Assembly: GCA_029762535.1 (NCBI GenBank)
Contig: JARVGK010000003.1
Span: 1-64,000, forward strand
Source: Thermoplasmatota archaeon
Lineage (GTDB): Archaea; Thermoplasmatota; Penumbrarchaeia; Penumbrarchaeales; Penumbrarchaeaceae
DNA: 64,000 nucleotides
Reading direction: 5' to 3'
Shown here: in pieces, positions 48,658 through 49,920 of the stretch
How positions within the stretch are numbered: the stretch's first letter is position 1
How the letters are laid out: every line of letters begins with the position of its first letter
Position numbers and translations under genes: made by a program
The notes under the pieces: model-generated
The model's input: only the letters and a program-made list of their open reading frames with translations
Told to the model about the DNA's origin: nothing
Databases searched by the model: none

Positions 48658-49389
48658 TTTTTTACCTCCAATGGCTTGGTGAAAGATGAGAAAGTATTCT
48701 TACATATTATAAACATAACTTGACATATTAGGTTTTTCATGTCCAGATACGGGACGAATGAAGGGATCCCTTCTTCTGGATAGGTCGATGTTCATATCGA
48801 GTACGGAATAGGGGATCGTTGACGGATGTTCTTGGACTGTTAATAGCAGGGGTGAGAGAAAGGATCCCGAACGGGGATCCCGCGATCATGGTCCTTGACA
48901 AGCTCTCAAGGTCCAATTTCAGGATGTCGATCCCCTTTTATCTCCGCACCAAGGAGGAGATCTTAAAAGTAAAGGATGATTAGACAATACTGTCACTGGT
49001 GGGAACCTTCGTAACGTCAACATGCCGACAACTACAACAGTTCCAAAGGGGGGAAAATGCCATCGGGAATTTTTTCGAAGTTGAACCCTGGGTTCAAAGA
49101 CGCCAGTGGCGACAATGAGTAAAAAAATAAACGGGAAGCAACAAATCGCTCGATCATCAGGCTTCCCGGTCCTGGAAAAACCAAGCCGGGGAATTGGTCA
49201 CTGGTAGTTTTTCCCGACTTTTTCATCCTACAACGATCACAATATGCCAAAGGATGAAAAAGAGCCACTGGTGGGAACCCGCAGAAACCTCGAAGAGGGT
49301 TCGAGGGCAGGGGAAATGTCATCAGACATTTTCCCGATGTTGAACCCAAGGTTCAATCACACCAGTGGCGACAAAGAGTAAAGAATAAA

Positions 49390-49464
49390 TGGAGCCACTG
49401 GTGGGAATTGAACCCACGACCTACTCCTTACCAAGGAGTCGCTATACCGCTAAGCCACAGTGGC
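49390..49464 (-). tRNA. tRNA-Thr (anticodon GGT), CCA encoded
   Basis: GCCACTG/CAGTGGC acceptor, ACTCC-TTGGTAA-GGAGT, GTGGG-TTCAATT-CCCAC, TCCA end. Confidence 0.95.
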
Positions 49465-49520
49465 GATGTTTTGGAGGGTGGTTAAAAACGGACCTTTACT
49501 TAAACATTGCTGAGTTATCC

Positions 49521-49720
49521 GAGCCACTGGTGGGAACCTTTGGAACGTCAACATGCCGACAACTACAACAGTTCCAAAGGCGGGGAAAATGCCCTCAGGC
49601 ATTTTTCCAACGTTGAACCCACGACCTACTCCTTACCAAGGCCCTGGGAAAACCTTGGGTTTTCCCGGTCATGACCCCTTTCGGGCTCATGAAGTCGCTA
49701 TATCGCTAAGCCACAGTGGC
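49521..49720 (-). pseudogene. full-length tRNA-Thr copy interrupted by two hairpin inserts
   Basis: tRNA segments 49521-49536, 49613-49641 and 49693-49720, separated by 76-nt and 51-nt inserts; D-loop GG>GA; CCA lost. Confidence 0.85.
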
Positions 49721-49920
49721 GATGTTTTGGAGGGTGGTTAAAAACGGACCTATACTAAAACAATATTGAATAAGAGAAGTCACTGGTGGGAACCTTTGGA
49801 ACTTCAACATGCCGACAACTACAACAGTTCCAAAGGCGGGGAAAAAGCCTGTTGCTCTTTCTAAGATTTATCATCATCAATAGTGACAATATAATTATCG
49901 TATCAGATCATCCCGCCTTC

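Follow-up and report, generated by a model that had tools for sequence, protein, structure and literature searches.

Fold-back repeat units at archaeal tRNA genes look like an undescribed kind of tRNA-targeted mobile DNA

Repeat units around the tRNA-Thr(GGU) gene

The window analyzed here, a stretch of 64,000 nucleotides from an archaeon of the Thermoplasmatota, is part of contig C36 of a draft genome (G000; 2.96 Mb in 102 contigs, 93% complete) and carries an array of short repeats around a tRNA-Thr(GGU) gene. The original prediction placed a tRNA-seeded array at this gene between positions 48992 and 49845, and a repeat finder confirmed it by revealing five copies of the last 14 nt of the tRNA (repeat family D3) at 48992, 49264, 49394, 49523 and 49779, the copy at 49394 being that of the gene itself. 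ARAGORN and Rfam called a sole tRNA-Thr(GGU) at the array, at 49390-49464 on the minus strand; this gene, termed Thr1, is intact and has an encoded CCA (Rfam tRNA, 71.6 bits). When read on the tRNA strand, the array starts with a truncated module and a 3'-end copy (49845-49779), which are followed by a promoter copy, a second tRNA-Thr copy termed Thr2 (49720-49523), another promoter and Thr1 (49464-49390). Thr1 is followed by a T-rich linker, unit B (49369-49264), a three-hairpin block (49263-49132), a second linker and unit A (49110-48992), and the tRNA-end copies behind Thr1, at 49264 and 48992, are 14-18 nt long. As at attachment (att) sites, direct repeats of a tRNA segment flank inserted DNA and one gene is intact. 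The open reading frames (ORFs) that overlap the array had no Pfam match, and no integrase is encoded among them; the flanking genes are housekeeping genes.

Unit B (49264..49369, plus strand) was found to be intact. On the tRNA strand, it contains an antisense copy of tRNA positions 49-73, a 2-nt loop, sense positions 49-58, a dumbbell and sense positions 59-73 (here and below, numbers such as 29/30 and 58/59 are tRNA positions). The inverted arms of the unit span 13 nt each (49264-49276 and 49357-49369; inverted repeat I4) and are 92% complementary. The unit folds into a closed four-way structure with a 10-bp closing stem and three hairpins, with z values (fold energy relative to dinucleotide shuffles) of -7.6 (plus strand) and -7.3 (minus strand), and the plus strand is the more stable of the two (-33.7 versus -28.9 kcal/mol). 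As in folded single-strand att sites, there is a mismatch opposite the insertion point, the fold is strand-asymmetric, and a 10-bp stem is combined with a fold-back.

Unit A (48992..49110, plus strand; repeats D2 and D4) keeps the closing stem and the fold-back; mismatches are present in both inner arms, and the plus-strand closing stem contains two G.T pairs. Since its z values are only -0.9 and -1.0 and its inner arms are mismatched, unit A is an older, decayed copy of the unit B type. The description of both units as bounded by inverted repeats of about 10 bp with three hairpins each therefore holds for unit B, but not in full for unit A. The linker said to be common to both units was recovered as part of an 87-nt stretch with 77% identity (D4), and the fold-back ending was also found in the Arg units, as had been noted. 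The reported covariation of the middle arm is real, but unit A has no part in it; the comparison that shows it is that of unit B with the copy within 49537-49612. The term "cloverleaf-like", used for the units at the outset, is a description of their fold only.

The three-hairpin block (49132..49263, minus strand) is composed of hairpins at 49218-49262, approximately 49170-49217 and 49132-49168. The first of these, the long-loop hairpin of the original prediction, combines a 21-nt loop with a perfect stem of 12 bp (I3; z of -5.5). Alignment revealed homologous blocks behind the Thr-UGU and Thr-CGU genes; in all three Thr isoacceptor genes, one such block lies beyond the outermost 3'-end copy, with the fold-back units between gene and block, which fits insertion at the gene with older material being pushed outward.

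The remaining parts of the array are linkers, promoters and fragments. The T-rich, terminator-like linker at 49370..49389 (minus strand, D4) separates Thr1 from unit B, and a second copy of it lies at 49111..49131 (minus strand, D4). The Thr1 promoter and leader (49465..49522, minus strand) lie within the 162-nt repeat D1 and contain a TATA-like box at approximately 49497-49504, as seen when the upstream regions of all tRNA genes were compared. The promoter copy that precedes Thr2 (49721..49778, minus strand) also belongs to D1, which repeats with 90% identity at a period of 256. The outermost upstream copy (49779..49845, minus strand) is truncated, as had been described; it contains a long-loop hairpin, 92% identical to the other long-loop-arm copies (D2), and a tRNA 3'-end copy with a G-to-A change. 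On the other side of the array, a 15-nt fragment at 48942..48956 (plus strand, D7, 87%) resembles the antisense of the tRNA-Thr anticodon arm and is possibly a relic of a further copy, although a chance match of this length is conceivable. A segment at 48963-48975 (plus strand), about 29 nt before unit A, shares a 9-mer with the Thr promoter box. The whole stretch of 48942-48975 may be a relic of a further copy or a promoter facing outward.

That the array arose as an assembly artefact of a metagenome-assembled genome is hardly credible. The genome is a draft of 102 contigs, and some of its other arrays contain N gaps. The Thr locus contains no N, however, and the divergence of 8-23% among its copies speaks against their being reads that were collapsed or duplicated; furthermore, the same architecture is present at the orthologous site, between the same flanking genes, in independent genomes of four other genera.

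An interrupted second tRNA-Thr copy

Thr2 (49523..49720, minus strand) is a complete second tRNA-Thr copy, which was overlooked in the first reading of the window and called by neither ARAGORN nor Rfam. Its exons at 49693-49720, 49613-49641 and 49523-49536 are separated by insert i1 (49642-49692), with 51 nt at 29/30, and insert i2 (49537-49612), with 76 nt at 58/59. Both inserts are scarless, with zero tRNA bases lost or duplicated. Upon removal of the inserts in silico, a cloverleaf was obtained, and Thr2 was called as tRNA-Thr(GGU), with one D-loop base different from Thr1.

The two inserts follow the same dumbbell plan, in which a variable hairpin flush with the junction is followed by a 2-3-nt spacer, an A-tract/T-tract hairpin and a 4-nt tail. 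In i1 (z of -7.7), whose native strand is the minus strand and thus the tRNA sense strand, the variable hairpin is flush with the 5' junction. In i2 (z of -5.1), whose native strand is the plus strand, antisense to the tRNA, the dumbbell is of the kind that we call type B and consists of a long-loop hairpin and an A-tract/T-tract hairpin. Since i1 and i2 are oppositely oriented, the A/T-tract hairpin faces the middle exon in both. Homologues of i2 adjoin Thr-CGU, Glu, Gly and Leu genes. When the long-loop hairpin of i2 (49537-49580) was compared with type-B modules on contigs C22, C25, C10 and C102 of G000, the stem was found to be kept and the loop motif CGTCAA to lie on the opposite strand; the orientation in the Thr(GGU) copies is opposite to that in the copies at Thr(CGU), Glu and Gly, which gives the impression that the loop was flipped while the stem arms stayed in place.

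Scarless inserts at 29/30 and 58/59 are present in three genera, represented by G000, G010 and G020, and insert removal yielded a tRNA-Thr(GGU) from Thr2 in each. The insert sequences are unrelated among the three, and the two-hairpin layout is common to them; in particular, i1 of G010 and of G020 has the same architecture with a different sequence. Each Thr2 copy is altered at conserved tRNA positions, namely a D-loop G in G000, U55 and C72 in G010 and a D-stem pair in G020.

The inserts were examined with a strict bulge-helix-bulge (BHB) test, in which 3-nt bulges around a 4-bp helix are sought at the exon-intron boundaries, with the canonical introns of G000 as positive controls. The Ser intron was perfect, and the Tyr and Trp introns had three of the four central pairs and full outer helices. 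In G000, G010 and G020, all six insert boundaries lacked the motif, showing one to three of the four central pairs and poor flanking helices. The splicing endonuclease of G000 is encoded by one gene on contig C19 (about 28.2-29.0 kb), a 348-amino acid ORF with two tRNA_int_endo (catalytic-type) domains, and is, judging from these domains, of the fused two-unit alpha2 kind. Enzymes of the alpha2 kind are reported to be strict for the canonical BHB motif (PMC4090602). This was the sole type detected in G000, and no endonuclease type that accepts relaxed motifs was found there. On the basis of the BHB test, the Thr2 inserts were rejected as BHB introns, in agreement with the endonuclease type.

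We consider it very unlikely that we are dealing with genuine archaeal tRNA introns in the case of the inserts and with parts of split tRNA genes in the case of the 5' and 3' units, to be removed or joined by the splicing endonuclease and a ligase. Introns away from 37/38, including those in the anticodon stem and the T-arm, have been described in Crenarchaeota, which counts in favor of such a reading, as do the promoter copy of Thr2, the cloverleaf restored upon insert removal and the conservation of the Thr2 exons in three genera. These points are opposed by the six boundaries without a BHB motif in a test that the Ser, Tyr and Trp introns passed or nearly passed, by the reported strictness of the only endonuclease, by the changes at conserved tRNA positions and by the intact Thr1 that lies beside every Thr2. 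The units resemble archaeal non-canonical BHB introns and split tRNAs in the insertions at non-canonical tRNA positions and in the complementary sequences beside tRNA fragments, whereas the BHB motif is missing here and the endonuclease is of the strict type.

Distribution in the genome and among relatives

To determine how widespread such units are, same-strand copies of each tRNA gene's own ends were sought within 2.5 kb of the 45 credible tRNA genes of G000. Extra copies were present at 25 of them and followed a strict polarity: 41 of the 3'-end copies lay downstream and two upstream, and 16 of the 5'-end copies lay upstream and none downstream. Both upstream 3'-end copies belong to the Thr(GGU) locus, one in Thr2 and one in the truncated copy. 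The genome-wide process proposed at the outset was thereby supported, with arrays found both at other tRNA genes and in relatives. The units are 80-190 nt long and contain no cargo remnants. Several unit classes recur at different tRNAs, and what they have in common is an A/T-tract hairpin and an antisense target copy of 12-22 nt that spans the insertion point. The bases flanking the insertion point vary among 29/30, 58/59, 56/57 and 59/60 and among tRNAs. Encoded CCA, considered as a marker of element-derived 3' ends, showed no association, as downstream copies were present in 11 of the 21 genes with CCA and 11 of the 24 without it.

The modules were found to have a preferred strand. All 11 type-B units, the kind present at Thr(GGU), fold better antisense to the tRNA and have their G.T pairs on the antisense strand, whereas most of the other unit classes prefer the sense strand; the modules thus have a native strand and occur in both orientations. 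The preference of type B suggests a single-stranded form and is evidence against the units simply being transcribed together with the tRNA.

This strand asymmetry bears on the possibility that the units are small structured RNA genes, an archaeal counterpart of the tRNA-linked repeats of E. coli, which would be released by RNase P or RNase Z through the acceptor-like stem and would serve as regulators, decoys or tRNA-processing aids. The E. coli repeats (among them the tyrT 178-bp repeats and rrA, rrB and rrF) are gene-less, are found at roughly ten loci in a genome with one to five copies at each and terminate in a duplicate of the gene's final 18-19 bp; some are processed small RNAs, and their origin is unexplained and their function mostly unknown (PMC8144298). 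The archaeal units are similar in that they are gene-less, directly follow a stable-RNA gene and terminate in a duplicate of its end. They differ in that they also stack before genes by using the 5' end, contain an antisense target copy and conserved two-hairpin modules, occur inside a full tRNA copy and are found at about half of the tRNA genes; there is no sequence or Rfam relation between the two. An RNA-gene reading is favored by the acceptor-like closing stem with its terminal copy of the tRNA 3' end, by the strong folds (z down to -7.7), by the hairpin architecture that is preserved across genera while the sequence changes and by the strand-specific G.T pairs, which suit RNA as well as single-stranded DNA. 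It is weakened by the terminator-like linker between the tRNA and each unit, by the better folding of type B antisense to the tRNA, by truncated or decayed copies such as unit A and by the variation in presence, number and side (5' or 3') among species of one genus. In addition, no Rfam family beyond tRNA, RtT included, matched the array at the gathering score or at E values up to 5, nor was there an Rfam match at five other hairpin-rich loci. On balance, we regard it as unlikely that the units are RNA genes.

With tRNA-derived parts masked, loci whose tRNA 3' ends are more alike tend to have more similar modules (Spearman 0.33, permutation p of 0.0015, 18 genes). Moreover, where Val and Pro genes have homologous units, the two sets diverge in the sense arm as well as in the antisense arm. 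Taken together, these two observations suggest that spread depends on target similarity. In the MAFFT alignment of type-B modules, covariation by columns was weak because of register shifts, and RNAalifold predicted nothing. The linker right behind the gene belongs to the repeat (D4) and is common to different tRNA loci, which places the boundary of the incoming DNA inside the gene or at its end. Copies proximal to the gene matched it better than distal copies in 12 arrays, worse in one and equally in four, a gradient in which class-specific junctions with the tRNA end, at 58/59 or 59/60, are a partial confounder.

Among relatives, the Thr(GGU) locus was compared between 10 genomes of the same family (f1) and 13 related loci outside it (11 Thr-GGU and two Thr-CGU). 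Extra end copies were present in nine of the 10 family genomes and at one of the 13 outside loci. Turnover was evident within genera. In genus g3, the site is empty in G008, where the gene is single and clean; G020 carries both Thr2 and Thr1, and a 3' unit is found in G013. In genus g5, a 3' unit is present in G004 and Thr2 in G010. In G020, it is the interrupted copy whose promoter is orthologous to that of the G008 gene, and another promoter copy precedes the intact gene; this would be expected if both the promoter and positions 1-29 had arrived with the incoming DNA. A large integrated element behind Thr1 of G020 was also considered, and no further att copy was found within 17 kb.

Proposed entry into tRNA genes and comparison with known systems

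Our preferred explanation, which we hold tentatively and at slightly less than an even chance, is that the units are non-autonomous mobile or recombining DNA that enters tRNA genes at two fixed points and brings a replacement tRNA end. A 3' unit, read on the tRNA strand, consists of a T-rich linker, an antisense copy of approximately positions 49-73, sense positions 49-58, a two-hairpin dumbbell and sense positions 59-73. As a single strand, its antisense arm would pair with both sense pieces and so mimic the uninterrupted target duplex, with the dumbbell bulging at 58/59. A mirror-image kind of unit, carrying a promoter and tRNA positions 1-29, would act at 29/30. Entry at the T-loop or the anticodon-stem point would proceed by recombination through the tRNA-end copy that the unit itself carries, such that the gene would be rebuilt from the element's copy and the old end displaced outward; arrays would hence grow from the gene outward. 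They would then be amplified by unequal crossing-over and decay distally, and Thr2 would be a by-product, namely a superfluous copy of the gene that has retained a dumbbell at either point. In this explanation, the recombination step, the folded single-strand intermediate and a catalyst are inferred. It is favored by the following observations: the polarity of the 3'- and 5'-end copies, the scarless inserts in three genera, the turnover among congeners, the promoters of G020, the linker that is borne by the repeat, the module similarity that depends on the 3' end, the proximal-distal gradient with unit B intact and unit A decayed, the strand bias of type B and the ORFs without a Pfam match.

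Several results weigh against this explanation. Many arrays are duplicated unit pairs, which unequal crossing-over alone could produce, and the proximal-distal gradient is confounded in part, as described above. The Thr2 exons are much better conserved than the inserts, with one to four changes in 72 nt; this conservation would fit gene conversion by Thr1, and function, which is also compatible, could be its cause instead. No strain-level before/after pair or excised circle was found, and a search of metagenome contigs gave only relatives with at most 50% identity. No catalyst emerged either. A Y1 transposase, a reverse transcriptase (RVT_1) and TnpB (searched by its Zn-ribbon) were not detected in G000; the Y1 transposase (PF01797) was likewise not found in G004 (97% complete) and G010. 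Of other recombination enzymes, G000 was found to encode only a single full tyrosine recombinase (a XerA-like ORF at C25:101143), an integrase adjacent to tRNA-Trp, a serine recombinase and an IS110 transposase, none of which showed a link to the arrays. The IS110 family is present in 10 of the 24 f1 genomes, with one copy in G000, and was not found in the array-bearing genomes G004, G010, G001, G011 and G014; the IS110 ends shared no more k-mers with the arrays than did shuffles, an AT repeat excepted.

Two of these genes lie close to tRNA genes. The tyrosine-integrase gene (G000:C53:7817-8098) immediately follows tRNA-Trp and is truncated where its contig ends, and units ending in the tRNA-Trp 3' end occupy the start of another contig (G000:C102:1-810), so that C53 and C102 may adjoin. 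The serine recombinase (289 amino acids; G000:C58:77885-78322) is about 340 bp behind tRNA-Cys, of which the assembly has three copies, two of them near contig starts.

With no enzyme found and no strain-level pair, the RNA-gene reading keeps appreciable weight, and so does one in which the arrays are passive: cargo-less scars, similar to cis-mobilizable elements (CIME-like), of integrase-driven integration at tRNA att sites, or products of tandem duplication and gene conversion between similar tRNA loci, with the hairpins acting as host terminators or promoters rather than belonging to a mobile unit. Integration into tRNA genes leaves one rebuilt gene and one partial copy (PMC9897764), and an intron-bearing attP was proposed to have seeded tRNA introns at the Thr(GGU) gene of Caldiarchaeum (PMC3293823). 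An integrase gene does abut tRNA-Trp in G000, the A-tract/T-tract hairpins give T runs on both strands, and many tRNA promoters of G000 lie inside hairpins. Outside the family, a simple 236-nt duplication lies behind tRNA-Thr in G035 (L052, contig C225, approximately 569-804); it ends in the last 23 nt, has the same downstream flank and is a plain tRNA-linked repeat without the fold-back architecture. Passive origins are, however, difficult to reconcile with units of 80-190 nt without cargo remnants, with a fixed architecture whose antisense target copy co-varies with the tRNA, which random scars would not keep, with at least 25 different tRNA genes being hit when integrases are usually specific for one, and with dumbbells that are scarless inside a complete tRNA copy. 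We therefore judge passive arrays to be an improbable outcome, of about the same standing as RNA genes.

In several tRNA promoters (for example, that of tRNA-Pro GGG on contig C14 and those of tRNA-Arg on C5, C15 and C36), the TATA box was located inside a perfect 10-12-bp hairpin arm, which places a TATA-like sequence on both strands.

The proposal that the units are mobile DNA can be compared with systems that act through folded single strands. In integron attC sites and the attP(+) of CTX phage, one strand of imperfect inverted repeats folds into the recombination-site duplex, with unpaired material at the crossover. The archaeal units would resemble these sites in their scarless integration and likewise have no enzyme gene of their own, and a folded-strand mechanism may by analogy be proposed for them. 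They differ in that there is no IntI/Xer-type core, in that the stem copies the tRNA target itself and in that no link to the XerA-like recombinase of G000 was found. With the miniature derivatives of IS200/IS605 and the hairpins of repetitive extragenic palindromic sequences mobilized by their associated tyrosine transposases (REP/RAYT), the units share a small, gene-less, hairpin-ended, scarless and strand-specific form; on the other hand, no Y1 transposase was found in G000, G004 or G010, and the units have no fixed 4-5-nt target and contain a 12-22-nt antisense target copy.

In archaeal att-site elements and in the model for the Caldiarchaeum tRNA-Thr(GGU), tRNA-end direct repeats likewise flank the insert and the gene is rebuilt from an incoming copy (PMC3293823; PMC9897764). 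The Caldiarchaeum model concerns the same tRNA species, and the incoming copy may bear extra sequence that ends inside the tRNA copy (PMC3293823). Att-site elements span kilobases and encode an integrase, whereas the archaeal units are 80-190 nt long and gene-less, contain a fold-back target mimic and target many tRNAs. Our explanation would thus extend, by analogy, the logic of att sites and the Caldiarchaeum model (PMC3293823), together with that of folded single-strand sites, to tiny, gene-less units with many targets.

The units look like an undescribed kind of tRNA-targeted mobile DNA. The stronger claim, that they constitute a class of protein-less mobile DNA not described before, in which an antisense target copy lets a unit of about 100-190 nt fold, as a single strand, into a target mimic with the dumbbell at the crossover, a host or trans-acting enzyme integrates it, base complementarity retargets the units and scarless intron-like inserts result, is possible but rather doubtful; if true, it would offer a way for non-canonical tRNA introns to originate at the level of DNA. 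The tRNA-linked repeats have been unexplained since 1978, and how archaea gain introns at odd tRNA positions is also an open question. Both become testable in a lineage that has repeats at about half of its tRNA genes and at both gene ends, gains and losses among congeners and modules lying scarless in a tRNA copy. Such a lineage allows one to ask if the modules are mobile at the DNA level, which agent mobilizes them and if inserts that cannot be spliced may give rise to introns. A practical consequence is that assemblies break at these arrays and that standard finders overlook tRNA genes there, as ARAGORN and Rfam did with Thr2. The N gaps in several arrays suggest that repeat-rich tRNA loci break assembly. 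When essential tRNA genes interrupted by modules were sought, tRNA-Asp, both tRNA-Lys, tRNA-Pro(UGG) and tRNA-Leu(UAG) were not found in the G000 assembly in any form.

The hairpin pattern was also considered as a taxonomic marker and rejected as not specific, as it marks other multi-hairpin repeats away from tRNAs in the distant relatives G027 (L021-L023), G065 (L024-L025) and G073 (L026). These genomes contain 19-73 copies of the hairpin motif in such repeats, far from tRNA genes; the copies in G027 are identical and lie within a four-hairpin element of about 170 nt. Since Y1 transposases are present in G027 and G065, those repeats may be REP/RAYT-like systems.

Within G000, stacks of A/T-tract hairpins without a tRNA were observed on contigs C31 (approximately 5.3-5.7 kb), C25 (approximately 48.3-48.9 kb) and C6 (approximately 78.5 kb) (L039-L041), with no Rfam match. 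All three are neighbored by GGGGCCCC repeats and by a recurrent GC-rich motif that T runs follow, with a TATA-like box upstream.

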